NCBI GenBank assembly: GCA_937872895.1
Contig: CALMUP010000008.1
Location: forward strand, 68,976 to 132,975
Origin: an uncultured Verrucomicrobiota bacterium
GTDB taxonomy: Bacteria > Verrucomicrobiota > Kiritimatiellia > CAIVKH01
Reading direction: 5' to 3'
DNA: 64,000 bases
Under the pieces are notes generated by a model that worked only from the letters and a program-made list of their open reading frames with translations, was not told the DNA's origin and did not search any database. Shown here piece after piece: positions 20,674 through 50,337 of this stretch. A program made the position numbers and the translations under genes. How positions within the stretch are numbered: position 1 is the first letter of the stretch; every line of letters begins with the position of its first letter.

Positions 20674-20768
20674 TGGCGGAGAGAGAGGGATTCGAACCCT
20701 CGGTACCTGGTTAACCCAAGTACAAGTGATTAGCAATCACTCGCATTCGACCACTCTGCCATCTCTCC
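20674..20768 (-). tRNA. tRNA-Ser (anticodon GCT), type II with long variable arm; CCA encoded
   Basis: The reverse complement folds as GGAGAGA / D-arm / anticodon stem AGTGA, loop TTGCTAA, TCACT / long variable stem / T-arm GAGGGTTCGAATCCCTC / acceptor / G / CCA. Confidence 0.85.
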
Positions 20769-31285: not shown

Positions 31286-31873
31286 TTACGCCGTCGTAGT
31301 ATGCGCATCGACCGTGGCGGACATGGCCTGGGCCGGGAACTTCGCCATGATCTCTTCGCGGAAGCTCCGGTAAGCCTTGCGATAGCGCTCCTGCTCGGCC
31401 GGGGATAGCGACTGGATATTGGCTTGCTGGAGGTTGCGGTACGGTTTGTGCCCGAGCCGCAGCAAGTGCCATAACCCATGAAAAATGTCATCGGCCCGGC
31501 GCCGGTAATGCATCGCCGGCAAGACGCATTCATCCGGCCGCGCATCCAGGAACTGGCATAGGAACCCCTCCTCGCCCTCAAGGTGCGCCTGGTGCTGCAT
31601 CATGGAATGAGCCGACTGGACGTTGTGGGAGATCAGCCGCAAGAAATGAAGCAGATCGTGTTCGGACTGGGTCGAGGCCGGGGATTTCGTCGAGAAGAAC
31701 GCGTGGAACTGTGCGGTCTTCAGCAACGTGATGACCTTGTCCACGTGCTCGATACGCGCACCGGTATCCATTTCCTGCATCGGCATGTACAACAGCTCCA
31801 CCGCGCGTTCGAAATAGGCGTCGCGACGGGCCAGATGGATCGGCCGGTTCAGGTTGAAATCCTTTGCGCTCAC
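31286..31873 (-). CDS. Hypothetical His-rich protein (possible metal-dependent hydrolase)
   Basis: 195 aa with many conserved-looking His residues (HNVQSAHSMMQHQAH). No confident family assignment. Confidence 0.35.
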   Translation of the reverse strand: MSAKDFNLNRPIHLARRDAYFERAVELLYMPMQEMDTGARIEHVDKVITLLKTAQFHAFFSTKSPASTQSEHDLLHFLRLISHNVQSAHSMMQHQAHLEGEEGFLCQFLDARPDECVLPAMHYRRRADDIFHGLWHLLRLGHKPYRNLQQANIQSLSPAEQERYRKAYRSFREEIMAKFPAQAMSATVDAHTTTA

Positions 31874-32238: not shown

Positions 32239-33081
32239 TCATAGACCGAGCGCCTTCGCAGCCTGCTTGAAGTCCTCCGGAATCGCCGCCCGCGCCTGCA
32301 CGAAGGTTTGCGTGTACGGGTGGGGGAATCCCAGCAACACCGCATGGAGCATGTGACGCTTCAGGGTGCGCAACATTGGATTGTCGAGCGTGGTGGCTCC
32401 GTATTGTTTTTCACCGGCTAGATGGAGTCCCAGCGCGGTCAGGTGGCGTCGGATCTGGTGGGTGCGTCCGGTGATCAGTGTGAACTCGAGGCGTGCCGCA
32501 GGACCTTTACGCTTCATGACTTTGACCAACGTCATCGCATCCTCGCCATCCACCGGACGGTTGATGACCTCCAGGCTCTCCGGCAGATTCCCGATCACCA
32601 GACCTTCGTAGAGCTTCTTGACTTCGCGCCGCTGGAAAACCGGGATCATACGCTGCATGTCATCGCGCGACCAGGCCAGCAGCATGCATCCCGAGGTCTC
32701 CCGGTCCAATCGGTGCACCGCATGGACAGTCCGCTGGAGTTCACGTCCCAGTTTCTCCTCGATGCTGCCGGTGCCGTTGGCGAGCCAGCCAGCCGGCTTG
32801 TTGATGATGATGAAGTGATCGTCCTGCCACAGGATCTCGCACGGCTTTTCCACCTCCGGGGTCATCATGCCATGGATCTCGACCAGATCCCCGATCTGGA
32901 CCTGGTGCCGGGCCATCCAGACCCGTTGGTGGTTGATGAAGACCTGCCGGGAATCGATCCGCCGCTTCGCCTCGTTGCGGGTCAGGCCCAGCCGACGGGC
33001 CAGCAAGGCGATCAATTCCAGGCCTTTTTCGCCGCCAGCCACCTTCAATTGAATCGGTTTGCTCATGGTCGGATCATTCAT
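32239..33081 (-). CDS. RluA-family pseudouridine synthase with N-terminal S4 domain
   Basis: S4 domain followed by HRLDRETSGCMLLA (catalytic Asp motif). Confidence 0.85.
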   Translation of the reverse strand: MNDPTMSKPIQLKVAGGEKGLELIALLARRLGLTRNEAKRRIDSRQVFINHQRVWMARHQVQIGDLVEIHGMMTPEVEKPCEILWQDDHFIIINKPAGWLANGTGSIEEKLGRELQRTVHAVHRLDRETSGCMLLAWSRDDMQRMIPVFQRREVKKLYEGLVIGNLPESLEVINRPVDGEDAMTLVKVMKRKGPAARLEFTLITGRTHQIRRHLTALGLHLAGEKQYGATTLDNPMLRTLKRHMLHAVLLGFPHPYTQTFVQARAAIPEDFKQAAKALGL

Positions 33082-33258
33082 GGAAGCGACCGGTTTGACA
33101 AGCCCCGTATCCCTCGGTCGGGCCGGCCGGGATGCGGCATCAAAGCAAAAGCTTGTCTATCTGACTGATTTCCCTTAGGAACAACGGCACAAGACCGGTT
33201 CGGAACGTCCCGTAGCCGGACGTTGCCGGACCGGTTGTGTTATGTAGGGAGCTGTATC

Positions 33259-35400
33259 ATGTCGAACCTGTTGAATGCCGACCAGATCAAGGAAGCCATC
33301 GAGCGGGACGATTGCCCGTGGCCCACGGTGGAATCGAGCCTCAAGGCCCTGTACCGCAGCGGACCGAAGGCACAAGCCGATAGCCTGTCCGATCTGGCCG
33401 CCACCGCTCTCGAAGCCTCGGGAAATTTCGACGGCTGGCTGGGTGTCATGGAGGTCCGCACCAGCGCCTCCGGGGAGTCCGGCTCCGCCTGGACCGCCCG
33501 CGTGTTGAAAGTGATCGGAAGCGAATGGGAACAGAAGGCCTTGGTTGAACAGGCCGGGTTCGATTCCGGCATCAGCGCCGGCGAAGCCATGCGCCGCCTC
33601 CGTCTGCTTCGCGGCCTCAAGGAAGGTGCCGTTTGCTTCGACAAGACCTGGGGTACCGGAGTGGTTGGCAAGACCGACTACTTCTACAAGCGGGTGGACA
33701 TTGATTTCCGCAAAAAACGCGGCCATCAACTTGCCTTGTCCTACGCCGCGGAAAAACTCCTGCTCCTCGACGAGCACCACATCCTGTACTGGCGTCACCA
33801 GAAACCGGCCGAACTGGTCGATCTGGTCAAGTCCAAGCCCGGTGAAGCCTTCAAGCTTGCGCTGCGTTCCTTCGGCGCCATGTCTGCCGTGCAGCTCCAG
33901 GAGAAGATGGTGCCGGATGTCCTCGACGAGAAGCAGTGGAAGTCCCTGTGGGATGCCGCCCGCAAGGAGCTCAAGGCGGACAAGACCGTGCAGATCCCTT
34001 CCAACAAGAAGGATCCGATCCGCCTGATCGACGAAGCCCGCGCGAACGACGTCAGCAATGACCTCAACGGCCTTGCCGCCGAACGCAACCTGGAAACGCT
34101 CGCCCTGCGGTTTGAAGAACTCGCCGAGGAAATCGGTCAGGGTGGCCTGACCGACCAGCAGCGCGGAATCCTGCAGGATCGCCTGGCCTTCGTGGTAAAA
34201 GGCGCCTGGCCGCGGCAATTGACCCTGTTGATCCGCACGAAAATGGCTGCCGTATCCCTCGGCATAGATGACGAGAGTAAACCCGAACTCGCCGCGATCG
34301 AGAAGTTCCTCGACGAAGAGATCTTCATGGAAACGCTGCGCAAGTTGCCGGTGAAGCACTCCGCCAGGTTCCTCCGTTACCTCTCCGCGTACAGCAAGGA
34401 CCGGATCGATTCCATGCTCGTCGCGTTGCTGAAGAAGATGGACATCGGATCCATGGCGGAAGTGATCAACTACCTGTTCGAACAGGGGCAGGAACGCCAG
34501 GTCGCGGAAATCTTCCGATCGGCGGTCGATACCCGCGAGCCCGGTATCGAAATCCTGAGTTGGCTCTCCCGCAACATGGAGAAAGTGGCCGCCTGGAACC
34601 TCGGTCCGATGAACCAGATGCTGCACTTCATGGTCGATGAAATCGAGAAGGACTACAACGGCGACCAGCTCAAGGCCCAGAACCAGCTCAAGGAACGCTT
34701 CAACAAGTCCGAATGGATGAAGTCGGCCATGGTCCAGCTCGACGAGGCACAGCGCGAAGTGATCACCATGCGCGTAAAAAACTCGTCCGGTTGGTCGATG
34801 CTCGACCGGCAGTCCCAGCTCGCCACCATGGTCAAGCTGTTCCCCGAGCTCGAGGCCCTGATGGCCAGCAGCAGCAAGCAGGAGCAGTCGGCCCCGAAGG
34901 GTCCGCTGACCTCGATTCGCACCTACGAGGAGCGCAAGGAGCAGCTGCAGCGCATCGTGAACGTGGAGATTCCCCGGGTGGCCAAGGAAATCGCCCTGGC
35001 CCGCGAATACGGCGACCTGCGCGAGAATTTCGAGTACAAGGCCGCCAAGGACGCCCAGGCCCTGCTGTTCCGCCGCCGCGACGAAATCGCCGCGATGCTG
35101 GCCAAGGTCACGCCGACCGACTTCAAGGACCTCCCTACCGACAAGGCCGGACCCGCCACCTCGGTGACCCTGACCTATGGCGATGGCAAGGTGGAAACAT
35201 TCCACCTGCTGGGCGAATGGGATACCGACCCGACCCTGAGCATCATCTCCAGCAATTCCCGCATGGCCCAGGTGCTGAGCGGCCATGTCGCCGGCGATTC
35301 GCTGATGGTCCCGACAGAAAATGGCGAGGCGACCTGCACGGTGACCGCAATCAGCGCGTTGCCCGACAAGATCCGCCTGTGGATTGAGCGGAAACTGTAA
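33259..35400 (+). CDS. Large (713 aa) protein with C-terminal complete GreA/GreB transcript-cleavage-factor module
   Basis: The C-terminal roughly 150 aa contain a coiled-coil with the acidic tip GDLRENFEYKAAKD (equivalent to the GreA DxxE tip) followed by an FKBP-like domain. The N-terminal roughly 560 aa are novel/helical. RBS gggag lies before the ATG at 33259. Confidence 0.65.
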   Translation: MSNLLNADQIKEAIERDDCPWPTVESSLKALYRSGPKAQADSLSDLAATALEASGNFDGWLGVMEVRTSASGESGSAWTARVLKVIGSEWEQKALVEQAGFDSGISAGEAMRRLRLLRGLKEGAVCFDKTWGTGVVGKTDYFYKRVDIDFRKKRGHQLALSYAAEKLLLLDEHHILYWRHQKPAELVDLVKSKPGEAFKLALRSFGAMSAVQLQEKMVPDVLDEKQWKSLWDAARKELKADKTVQIPSNKKDPIRLIDEARANDVSNDLNGLAAERNLETLALRFEELAEEIGQGGLTDQQRGILQDRLAFVVKGAWPRQLTLLIRTKMAAVSLGIDDESKPELAAIEKFLDEEIFMETLRKLPVKHSARFLRYLSAYSKDRIDSMLVALLKKMDIGSMAEVINYLFEQGQERQVAEIFRSAVDTREPGIEILSWLSRNMEKVAAWNLGPMNQMLHFMVDEIEKDYNGDQLKAQNQLKERFNKSEWMKSAMVQLDEAQREVITMRVKNSSGWSMLDRQSQLATMVKLFPELEALMASSSKQEQSAPKGPLTSIRTYEERKEQLQRIVNVEIPRVAKEIALAREYGDLRENFEYKAAKDAQALLFRRRDEIAAMLAKVTPTDFKDLPTDKAGPATSVTLTYGDGKVETFHLLGEWDTDPTLSIISSNSRMAQVLSGHVAGDSLMVPTENGEATCTVTAISALPDKIRLWIERKL

Positions 35401-35402
35401 GC

Positions 35403-35897
35403 GTGGAATCGCTGATCCAGCAGTTCCTCAGCCGCGACGCCGGCCCGGTCGTCCAGTTCATCAAGTATGCCCTGGCCGGCGGGATCGCCACCGCGGTGGA
35501 CATCGCGGTGTTCTACCTGGTGGCCTGGAAATTCATTCCCGCCCTGCGCGAGGATGATCCGGTCGTGAAGCGGCTGGGCCTGAAGGTCAAGCCGGTCACC
35601 GAAGCCCAGCGTTCCGCCCGCTTCGTGTACGTCACGCTGATCGCCTTCCTGTTCTCGAACCTGACCGCCTACCTGATCAACATCCTCTGGGTGTTCGAGC
35701 CGGGCAAGCATGCATGGTGGATTGAACTGCTGCTCTTCTACGCCGTATCCGGCATCAGCATCTTTATCGGGGCGGGCATCGGCTGGGTGATGATCAAGTG
35801 GTTCCACCTCAGCACCACCGCCTCCTACGCGAGCAAGATGATCGCATCACTGCTGATCAACTTTGTCTGCCGGAAATTCATTATTTTCAAGGGTTAA
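35403..35897 (+). CDS. GtrA-family membrane protein
   Basis: 164 aa with four TM helices, a GtrA-like N-terminus (…FIKYALAGGIATAVDIAVFYLV…) and a GTG start. Confidence 0.65.
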   Translation: MESLIQQFLSRDAGPVVQFIKYALAGGIATAVDIAVFYLVAWKFIPALREDDPVVKRLGLKVKPVTEAQRSARFVYVTLIAFLFSNLTAYLINILWVFEPGKHAWWIELLLFYAVSGISIFIGAGIGWVMIKWFHLSTTASYASKMIASLLINFVCRKFIIFKG

Positions 35898-38147
35898 CCC
35901 GTCGTCCGGAGCAAGCAGCCGCGCAGTCAGCCCGGTACGGCGCTGCTGGACATCATGCCGCCCGACCGCCATGGCGATGGCCTTGCGCGAGCCGACCAGG
36001 ATCACCAGCTTGCGCCCCCGGGTGATCGCCGTGTACAGCAGGTTCCGCTGCAGCATCATGAAGTGCTGGGTGTGCACCGGCACGATCACGCAGGGATATT
36101 CGCTGCCCTGGCTCTTATGCACGGTGATGGCGTAGGCCGGGGCCAGCTCGTCGAGCTCGTTGAAGCCGTAGTGCACGAGACGGTCGCCGAAGCGCACCAG
36201 CATCTGCTGCTCGGGGGTGTCGATGCGGTGCACGAAGCCGACATCACCGTTGAAAACCTCCTTGTCGTAGTCGTTCTCGAGCTGCATCACCTTGTCCTTC
36301 TCGCGGAACACGATGCCGAATCGTTCCAGGACATCACCGTGGGGATTCAACGCCTCCTGCAGCCGCGCATTGAGGTTCCGGGCACCGAGCGCGCCACGTT
36401 GCATCGGGGCGAGCACCTGGATGTCGCGGATCGGACTGAGCTTGGCCCGCGCCGGCACGTGTTTGCAAACCAGCTTGAGAATGGTGTCCACCGCGCGTTC
36501 CGGGTCCTCCTCCTCCATGATGAAGAAGTCCGACCCTGAACCCGGCTCGCCGCTGACCGGCATGTCGCCCCGGTTGACCGCGTGGGCGTTGACCACGATC
36601 GCGCTGCCTTCAGCCTGCCGGAAGATCTCGTTGAGCTGGGCGACCGGGAAGGCCCCGCTGCGGATAATGTCCTTCAGCACCGCACCGGGCCCGACCGAGG
36701 GCAACTGGTCGACGTCGCCGACCAGCACCAGCGCCGCCCGGCGGGGCAGGGCGGCCACCAGCGCATGGGCCAGGGGAAGGTCAAGCATGCTCGACTCGTC
36801 CACGATGAACACGTCGCCTTCAAGAGGATTCTTCGCGCCGAACTTGAATGACCCCTTGCCCGGCTCGAACTCGAGCATGCGGTGGATCGTCTTGGCGTCC
36901 AGCCCGGTGGATTCGCTCAATCGCTTGGCCGCACGCCCGGTCGGCGCACACAGGCACACCGTCACCCGCTTCGCACCAAGGATCTGGATGATTGCCCGGA
37001 TCAGGGTGGTCTTACCCACGCCGGGCCCGCCGGTGATCACACTTACCTTGTGTGTCAATGCGCCCGCCACCGCGGCCCGCTGCGCCGGAGCCAACGTAAA
37101 GCCGATGCGCGCCTCCGCCCAGACGATCGCCTTGTCCACCGCGATGGGCGGACTCGGATACGTGCCCTGGGCCAGCGACTTGAGGCGGCGGGCCAGCGAG
37201 ACTTCGAAGTCGTAGAGGTGCGCGAGGTAGATCACCGCAGTGCCCTGGTGCTGGTCGCGCACGATACGACGTTCACGCAACGCGTGGGCGATCGCCTCCT
37301 CGATGATCGGGCGCTCGATACCGAGGATGCTCACCGCCTGTTCGATCAATTCCTCGAGCAGACAGGCGCAATGGCCCTGGTTGGTCATCTCCAGCAGCAC
37401 ATGTTCAATGCCGGCCCGCGCGCGCAACACGCTGTTCGCCGCGATGCCCATCTTCATGGCGATGGCATCCGCGCTCTTGAACCCGATGCCCTTGATGTCG
37501 CGGGCGAGGCAATAGGGATCGGCCTTGACCGTCGGGATCGCCCGGTCGCCGTACATGCGGTAGATGCGGAACGCCCGCGCCGTGCTGATGCCGTTGGCCA
37601 TCAGGAACGCCATGATCGCCCGGATCTCCCGCGCCTCGTTCCAGCTCTCCTTGATACACTGGCGGCGCGTCTTGCCGATGCCTTCGACCTCCTCCAGCCG
37701 TGCCGACTCCTTCTCGATGATCTCGAAGATCTCGCGGCCGAATTGCTTCACCAGCTTCGCCGCATAGACCGGACCGATGCCGCGAATCATGCCGGAGCCG
37801 AGGAACTTCTCGATACCCTCCAGCGAATCCGGTGGACTCCCCTTGAGCTGCTCGGCCTTGAATTGGCGGCCATGCTGACGGTCGGTAATCCACGATCCGG
37901 ATGCCGTGACGGTTTCGCCCGGCACGATCTGCGGGATTTGACCGACGACCGTTACCGGGGTTTTGCGTCCGCCTAAAAGCACCTTCAAAACGGTAAATCC
38001 CGTCTCGTCGTTGTGGAACGTCACCCGATCCACGGTACCGGAAAGGCTTGTCGTGGCGGTACTTGACAGTTGTTCCGGGTTGGCCATGGACACTCTATAC
38101 CACAACCGATGGCTCGCTGAAAGGATGGTGAATTTTCCTTTATCCAC
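35847..38147 (-). CDS. recD2: RecD2-like ATP-dependent DNA helicase (SF1B)
   Basis: Walker A GGPGVGKTT with helicase motifs. The N-terminal region is typical of RecD2. The start may be the internal MANPEQ at 38087. Confidence 0.9.
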   Translation of the reverse strand: MDKGKFTILSASHRLWYRVSMANPEQLSSTATTSLSGTVDRVTFHNDETGFTVLKVLLGGRKTPVTVVGQIPQIVPGETVTASGSWITDRQHGRQFKAEQLKGSPPDSLEGIEKFLGSGMIRGIGPVYAAKLVKQFGREIFEIIEKESARLEEVEGIGKTRRQCIKESWNEAREIRAIMAFLMANGISTARAFRIYRMYGDRAIPTVKADPYCLARDIKGIGFKSADAIAMKMGIAANSVLRARAGIEHVLLEMTNQGHCACLLEELIEQAVSILGIERPIIEEAIAHALRERRIVRDQHQGTAVIYLAHLYDFEVSLARRLKSLAQGTYPSPPIAVDKAIVWAEARIGFTLAPAQRAAVAGALTHKVSVITGGPGVGKTTLIRAIIQILGAKRVTVCLCAPTGRAAKRLSESTGLDAKTIHRMLEFEPGKGSFKFGAKNPLEGDVFIVDESSMLDLPLAHALVAALPRRAALVLVGDVDQLPSVGPGAVLKDIIRSGAFPVAQLNEIFRQAEGSAIVVNAHAVNRGDMPVSGEPGSGSDFFIMEEEDPERAVDTILKLVCKHVPARAKLSPIRDIQVLAPMQRGALGARNLNARLQEALNPHGDVLERFGIVFREKDKVMQLENDYDKEVFNGDVGFVHRIDTPEQQMLVRFGDRLVHYGFNELDELAPAYAITVHKSQGSEYPCVIVPVHTQHFMMLQRNLLYTAITRGRKLVILVGSRKAIAMAVGRHDVQQRRTGLTARLLAPDDGLTLENNEFPADKVDQQ

Positions 38148-50261: not shown

Positions 50262-50337
<76 letters not shown>

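Follow-up and report, generated by a model that had tools for sequence, protein, structure and literature searches.

A long greA gene in a Kiritimatiellia genome

We analyzed a 64,000-nucleotide stretch of DNA from an uncultured Verrucomicrobiota bacterium of the class Kiritimatiellia (assembly GCA_937872895.1, contig CALMUP010000008.1, forward-strand positions 68,976 to 132,975; hereafter the window). The subject of this analysis is a gene in the window that encodes a 713-residue protein ending in a GreA/GreB-type transcript cleavage factor, which we refer to as long greA. All coordinates are window positions.

33223 to 35400, + strand: long greA open reading frame (ORF), including the TAA stop; the ATG at 33259 gives the 713-residue protein (ORF list, homologue starts)

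The ATG at 33259 lies ~7 nt downstream of a Shine-Dalgarno-like motif (GGGAG) and coincides with the starts of the homologues, which begin MSN. Initiation at an upstream TTG (33223) is unlikely. A metagenome protein from bioreactor sludge (P0001) matches the window protein with 100% identity, and its gene neighbors are the same. An antisense ORF of 703 residues (33175 to 35286, - strand) lies opposite greA, in coding sequence of about 61% GC. We took this ORF to be a shadow of GC-rich coding DNA. All homology belongs to the + strand frame.

The C-terminal part is a complete Gre module

The C-terminal part of the protein contains the following features.

34912 to 35109, + strand: Gre N-terminal coiled-coil, residues 552-617 (Pfam, phmmer, alignment, AlphaFold model)
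35011 to 35052, + strand: acidic-tip motif GDLRENFEYKAAKD, containing D586 and E589
35110 to 35397, + strand: Gre C-terminal globular domain, residues 618-713 (Pfam, phmmer, model, Foldseek)

An earlier reading of this DNA, made from the letters alone (the sequence-only reading), had described a 713-residue protein that ends in a complete GreA/GreB module. Our analysis bears this out. Residues ~552-709 carry both Pfam domains above their gathering cut-offs, GreA_GreB_N (PF03449) at residues 554-617 (58.5 bits, cut-off 24.5) and GreA_GreB (PF01272) at residues 626-699 (45.2 bits, cut-off 26.9), and each of the 65 family members has the same two domains. The best phmmer match among solved structures was E. 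coli GreA (1grj, E = 4.5e-14), with GreB next. In an AlphaFold model of the full-length protein, made from the family alignment, the predicted local distance difference test score (pLDDT) was about 85-91 across most of the module. Comparison of the C-terminal part of this model with 1grj, 2p4v, 3aoi_X and 4wqt_X, which comprise GreA, GreB and RNA polymerase (RNAP)-bound Gfh1, gave target-normalized template-modeling (TM) scores of 0.73-0.78 using Foldseek.

The catalytic residues are also in place. In the phmmer alignment to 1grj, GDLRENFEYKAAKD aligns with E. coli GreA GDLKENAEYHAARE, such that D586 and E589 fall on D41 and E44, the correspondence that had been proposed for the tip Asp and Glu. 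Both residues are invariant in the 65 aligned family members. In the GreA/GreB family, the coiled-coil inserts into the RNAP secondary channel. Homology, fold and the invariant catalytic tip residues all agree with the earlier assignment of the protein as a secondary-channel factor of RNAP.

The window protein has the same coiled-coil, acidic tip and C-terminal globular domain as canonical GreA and GreB (1grj, 2p4v), but these are stand-alone proteins of ~158 residues, while in the window protein the Gre module forms only the last ~160 of 713 residues. No NCBIfam GreA/GreB equivalog cut-off was reached by the window protein. It scored 103.2 bits against TIGR01462 greA (cut-off 139), 86.4 bits against the best GreA equivalog (cut-off 167) and 42.2 bits against greB TIGR01461 (cut-off 171).

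The fused architecture occurs throughout the lineage

We identified 66 homologues of the full protein. At full-length coverage these are 707-768 residues long, except for a 578-residue fragment and a 914-residue variant, and the named ones are all from Kiritimatiellia or Verrucomicrobia. A profile search with the family alignment in a word-indexed protein database returned the same 66 proteins and added none. In the 914-residue variant (P0058), ~200 extra residues precede the usual N-terminal region, and the profile match begins at residue 202.

An exhaustive comparison of 1.84 billion cluster representatives with a profile made from the N-terminal region only (the first 545 residues) gave 1,607 matching representatives at E ≤ 1e-3, of which 371 reached E ≤ 1e-30. 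Among the 150 strongest of the 1,607, almost all are 705-760 residues long. Relatives were found with this profile in 363 species genomes, from which 80 listed loci were taken for all locus-level counts. These loci derive from Kiritimatiellia, other Verrucomicrobiota (including Opitutia and Spartobacteria), Lentisphaerae/Victivallales, genomes labeled "PVC group" (Planctomycetes, Verrucomicrobia and Chlamydiae) or unclassified bacterial metagenome-assembled genomes (MAGs). Six-frame scanning with hidden Markov models (HMMs) placed the two parts, N-terminal region and Gre module, on a single ORF at 80 of 80 loci, and at none of these did the surrounding ±10 kb contain a separate Gre ORF. A second Gre-like ORF was likewise not found in the 64-kb window. 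The sequence-only reading had allowed that the protein would be a lineage-specific housekeeping GreA if it were the sole GreA homologue and the extension were present in all relatives. On the second point, the extension is present in every relative examined, by direct inspection at the 80 loci and by length for nearly all of the best 150 representatives.

When only the Gre module was used as the query, the search yielded seemingly short close relatives, among them P0211 and P0214. P0211 is a gene cut by the end of its contig. P0214 corresponds to the 3′ half of a long gene at locus L081 in which a 1-nt frameshift, located at a tttccc run, interrupts the linker. Beyond matches of this type, the search returned only proteins of ≤35% identity, which are ordinary GreA of other phyla, and no genuine short paralogue.

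Locus L081 (Kiritimatiellae MAG JAMLJF010000006.1, 1533 to 3700) is also the one observation that would favor an artefact, in which two genes were fused by misassembly or miscalling, as here the halves form separate overlapping ORFs, a 559-residue HTH_GRAD ORF and a 163-residue Gre ORF with a 4-nt overlap. However, the frameshift maps around L081 position 3145, upstream of which the Gre frame continues through the family linker consensus, and the split greA is followed at its 3′ side by the same GtrA-family gene as in the window. An assembly error or a pseudogene probably accounts for the L081 split, although a natural split is possible. Since the halves form a single ORF in the window and at 80 of 80 independent loci, and since the cluster representatives have the length of the fused protein, an artefactual fusion is effectively refuted.

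Long GreA is a catalogued family

The N-terminal region initially looked empty in our Pfam scan because the copy of Pfam that was scanned did not contain PF27167 (HTH_GRAD). With that copy, searches of the region as a whole and in four pieces yielded only a non-significant match to Sigma70_r4 (E = 0.14). Precomputed hits show PF27167 together with both Gre domains on P0001 and on all 66 homologues. We found no paper describing PF27167 or HTH_GRAD in a literature search, nor anything useful on the N-terminal domain, on BB0132 or on the spirochaete form.

Two NCBIfam models describe related long proteins. NF004969/PRK06330 ("transcript cleavage factor/unknown domain fusion protein", 718 positions), presumably a chlamydial family, resembles the window protein in overall length and architecture. 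The N-terminal region alone matches this model over residues 64-267 (model positions 81-285, E = 3.4e-19), and the Gre modules are also homologous, while D1 and D4, the first helical domain and the solenoid described below, are unmatched. The full protein scores 143.4 bits, where the equivalog cut-off is 697, and by NCBI's criterion it is thus a distant sister of the PRK06330 family rather than an orthologue. NF011309/PRK14720 (long "GreA", 906 positions), which we take to be the spirochaete/Borrelia form, is ~190 residues longer at its N-terminus. Against this model, the N-terminal region alone matches over residues 124-256 (model positions 310-442, E = 7e-17), and the end of D4 and the Gre module are homologous as well (residues 399-700, model positions 585-902), with a score for the window protein of 164 bits (cut-off 714). 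D2 and D3, the Tudor-like and helix-turn-helix (HTH)-like domains described below, are the N-terminal part common to the window protein and both models.

A long GreA has also been reported in Chlamydia trachomatis, where GreA (CTL0004) has 715 residues and is called "unusually large", with no function described for the extra sequence; greB is listed as absent (2024 review, PMC10995303). Long-form GreA is thus already catalogued, by PF27167, by the two NCBIfam models and in the chlamydial literature, and as the outcome of a genome scan the window protein is an ordinary member of a known family. What is new here is the domain parse of the N-terminal region and the Tudor-like lead that comes from it.

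Since the fused architecture is found everywhere we looked, and in view of PF27167, the NCBIfam long-GreA matches and the Chlamydia review, the protein is better explained as a lineage-wide housekeeping GreA than as an extra factor tethered to a sensor. We consider it very likely that the window protein is a functional, lineage-wide GreA, and long GreA is probably the housekeeping Gre factor of the lineage.

The sequence-only reading had instead pictured a secondary-channel factor attached to a large sensor or regulatory domain. In such a protein, the N-terminal region would switch Gre activity on a signal, making it a specialized regulator and not a general Gre factor. The region is large, conserved and flexibly linked to the Gre module, such that autoinhibition is conceivable, and the predicted TM score (pTM) of the full-length model (0.44) leaves the arrangement of the domains open. 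However, no known sensory, ligand-binding or signaling domain was detected in any of 65 members, the extension is fused in every relative examined, no short paralogue was found nearby, and the closest "short" matches come from truncated sequences or from a long gene with a frameshift. In Chlamydia, moreover, the long form is listed as the only greA (PMC10995303). We therefore regard a signal-dependent regulator as improbable and find no support for this part of the earlier reading.

The N-terminal region consists of four domains and a linker

The models and the alignment divide the N-terminal region as follows.

33259 to 33615, + strand: D1, helical, residues 1-119 (helices modeled over residues 7-119); the least conserved domain (identity 0.28)
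33616 to 33774, + strand: D2, Tudor-like beta-barrel, residues 120-172, LKEGAVCFDKTWGTGVVGKTDYFYKRVDIDFRKKRGHQLALSYAAEKLLLLDE (models, Foldseek)
33775 to 34044, + strand: D3, helical and HTH-like, residues 173-262 (models, alignment; identity 0.42)
34090 to 34884, + strand: D4, helical-repeat (ARM/HEAT-like) solenoid, residues 278-542 (AlphaFold model)
34885 to 34911, + strand: flexible linker, residues 543-551 (low pLDDT, <50 at residues 543-545)

The mean pLDDT of the full-length model was 87.6. A separate model of residues 103-262 had a pLDDT of 93 and a pTM of 0.82. That the ~550 residues before the Gre module are mostly helical, as had been described from the sequence, agrees with these models. 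The accompanying statement that they contain no obvious motifs does not stand, as the region includes a conserved beta-barrel block, a conserved Trp-containing helix and Pfam PF27167.

We measured conservation per domain in 33 non-redundant members, as mean identity to the query and as entropy. Of the N-terminal parts, D2 shows the strongest conservation (identity 0.58, 1.32 bits). Within the Gre module, the coiled-coil has similar values (0.63, 1.06 bits) and the C-terminal domain a lower identity (0.49). The invariant residues of D2 are W131, G134, F150, H156 and A163, which fall in or around the block DKTWGxGVV...VDIDF...GH. D3, which is probably the part that Pfam names HTH_GRAD, contains the helix WKxFWDAARKxLK, with W227, W231, A234 and R235 invariant, and carries a net positive charge in the family as a whole (median +3). 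Some D3 sequences (3 of 34 members) gave weak AlkZ-like (winged-helix) matches. D4, like D1, is less conserved than D2 and D3, and its Foldseek matches, to beta-catenin and other solenoids, were weak (E ~3e-3, low TM).

Models for sigma-70 region 4 and ECF sigma factors matched residues ~455-508 within D4 (34621 to 34782) weakly, with E = 0.002-0.05. As this match recurred in only 2 of 65 members, we rejected a sigma-70 region 4 at this position as probably due to chance.

The Tudor-like barrel resembles RNAP-binding domains

When the model of residues 103-262 was compared with the PDB using Foldseek, the best fits were bacterial RNAP-binding Tudor domains, with probabilities of 0.97-1.0. The C-terminal domain of Thermus thermophilus UvrD (7egt_B) superimposed on D2 with a TM of 0.79 and a root-mean-square deviation (rmsd) of 1.7 Å, and that of E. 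coli UvrD bound to the RNAP lobe (7egs_B) with a TM of 0.78. The Tudor domains of Mycobacterium smegmatis UvrD1 (9dqs) and PcrA (5dma), UvrD (6yi2) and CdnL (2lqk) were also matched. D2 and the UvrD/PcrA-type Tudors are five-stranded barrels of the same size (TM 0.67-0.79, rmsd 1.7-3.0 Å), but the barrel is internal in long GreA and terminal in PcrA and UvrD. The PcrA Tudor domain is reported to have the same set of structural neighbors as D2, and the RNAP-interaction Tudor domains of PcrA, Mfd, CarD and RapA have a common fold with no mutual sequence homology (PMC5397179). A Tudor-like fold for D2 is well supported by the models.

In sequence, the similarity is marginal. In PcrA, W684 and F705 are conserved, aromatic-cage-like residues and K712 is strongly conserved (PMC5397179). 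Alignment of the long GreA family with the PcrA C-terminal domain using hhalign (P = 0.0028) placed the WGxGxV and DIxF motifs of D2 on these aromatic positions, with W131 and F150 opposite W684 and F705, respectively. DUF3553 gave sub-threshold Pfam matches in 5 of 34 members. Homology between D2 and the UvrD/PcrA domain is possible.

We asked whether D2 could dock long GreA on RNAP, and a number of results weigh against this. The Foldseek E-values for D2 were just 0.06-0.2. Eukaryotic histone-reader Tudors (PHF1-type) and NusG matched D2 about equally, and thus the fold does not specify the partner of D2. With a two-sequence template of PcrA and UvrD, the hhalign result weakened to P = 0.013, and in an HMMER shuffle control the PcrA score was reached by 2 of 1000 shuffles and the UvrD score by 89 of 1000. 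A family fragment profile searched against PDB sequences returned 0 matches at E ≤ 10, and PcrA_UvrD_tudor (PF21196) was touched by 1 of 34 members, with E = 0.19. In the alignments of the long GreA family, the site that corresponds to PcrA K712 lacks conservation. CarD showed no similarity to the family (hhalign probability 0.2, P = 0.34; HMM score -2.2 bits). The pTM of the full-length model means that the relative positions of its domains are not predicted, and our literature search turned up no biochemical data on any long GreA. Given these results and the analogy with known Tudor domains, we regard an RNAP-docking role of the Tudor-like domain as a tentative possibility.

The Foldseek superposition of the D2-D3 model on CarD (4kbm_B) was also poor (TM about 0.3, rmsd 12 Å), and we rejected a CarD-like Trp-wedge function for the WKxFWDAARK helix of D3, which had an hhalign P of 0.34.

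Another explanation for D2 and D3 is that this core binds nucleic acid instead of RNAP, and either targets Gre to promoters, pause sites or transcripts or has a CarD-like role in initiation. The net basic charge of D3 (median +3) and its invariant Trp-rich helix are compatible with binding of this kind, as are the HTH name given to the family by Pfam, the weak AlkZ-like matches in 3 of 34 members and the matches of D2 to Tudor/KOW-type barrels such as that of NusG. However, no DNA-binding family was matched significantly, the CarD comparison was negative (P = 0.34), the sigma-70 region 4 hints are confined to 2 of 65 members, and the net charge is modest. We consider a nucleic acid-binding core unlikely.

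A model for long GreA

A model that accommodates these data is that the gene encodes the long GreA of the PVC lineage, a regular Gre factor with a second RNAP-docking core. Taken as a whole, this is the statement that we favor, with some reservation. By what is known of the GreA/GreB family, the Gre coiled-coil would enter the RNAP secondary channel, where D586 and E589 would position Mg2+ and water such that backtracked RNA is hydrolyzed. The Tudor-like and HTH-like core (residues 120-262) could be a second docking module that keeps the factor on RNAP. If it behaves like the Tudor-like domains through which PcrA/UvrD, Mfd and CarD interact with RNAP, docking would take place on the beta subunit, and the basic, HTH-like D3 may contact nucleic acid. 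The solenoid and the linker would then act as a spacer or tether, allowing the Gre module to enter and leave the channel while the factor stays bound.

A broader version of this model is that in the long GreAs of PVC bacteria, Chlamydiae and the PRK14720 family, a UvrD/PcrA-like Tudor docks on RNAP beta, and the cleavage factor has become a quasi-permanent, subunit-like component of the polymerase. We put this forward as speculation and rate it as doubtful. If true, the Tudor tether could compete with or replace UvrD/PcrA, Mfd and CarD as RNAP clients, and the rescue of backtracked RNAP would be linked to transcription-coupled repair in these lineages.

Long GreA is the form found in an entire superphylum, to which the pathogen Chlamydia belongs, and our literature search found no experimental work on its front ~550 residues. 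The conserved residues W131, F150, H156, W227 and W231 are candidates for the contacts. Together with the domain parse, they turn an "unknown domain fusion protein" into a concrete hypothesis of a second RNAP anchor. If correct, this would reveal a novel means of controlling entry to the RNAP secondary channel, with relevance for chlamydial transcription.

Gene neighborhood

The genes that flank greA are as follows.

32239 to 33081, - strand: RluA-family pseudouridine synthase (S4 and PseudoU_synth_2 domains), divergent from greA
35403 to 35897, + strand: GtrA/DPMS-family membrane protein, 164 residues (Pfam PF04138, 57.7 bits)
35847 to 38147, - strand: RecD2/YrrC-type helicase, converging on the GtrA-family gene with a 3′ overlap of 51 bp (35847-35897)

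The GtrA-family gene starts 2 nt past the greA stop codon, and no terminator-like site was found between the two genes on the + strand. The two are probably co-transcribed. A GtrA-family gene adjoins long greA in the same orientation at 61 of 80 loci (including L001-L032) and is truly absent, despite ample downstream DNA, from 19 more distant loci (Lentisphaerae, Victivallales and Pontiella).

This adjacency, together with the ARM/HEAT-like solenoid modeled at residues 278-542, could point to a different function for the N-terminal region, in which the solenoid is a scaffold that brings repair, translation or envelope-related factors to RNAP, for example the GtrA-family membrane protein encoded downstream. 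However, the solenoid has weak structural matches (E ~3e-3, low TM), D2 and D3 are both better conserved than D4, the 19 more distant loci keep long GreA without a GtrA-family gene, and adjacency in an operon does not show physical interaction. Some scaffolding function, which the sequence-only reading had also suggested, is possible from the model, but we see only a slim chance that the solenoid recruits such factors.

An RluA-type gene lies within 3 kb of greA at about 28 of 80 loci. The other neighbors (MutL, an infA-like ORF, RecD2 and PP2C) are housekeeping genes that are kept only among close relatives. Scans for promoters and terminators, Rfam families and tRNAs revealed nothing relevant to greA, and the only RNA genes that Rfam and ARAGORN detected in the window are two tRNAs. 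These, and a further ORF upstream of greA, are located as follows.

20674 to 20768, - strand: tRNA-Ser(GCT) (Rfam/ARAGORN)
31286 to 31873, - strand: ORF of 195 residues between mutL and rluA, with no Pfam match and homologues at only 6 of 80 loci
50262 to 50337, - strand: tRNA-Lys(CTT) (Rfam/ARAGORN)

The convergent arrangement of the RecD2 and GtrA-family genes is also present at loci L082 and L083, and at L083 a 75-residue infA-like (eIF-1a family) ORF lies just beyond the RluA-type gene.

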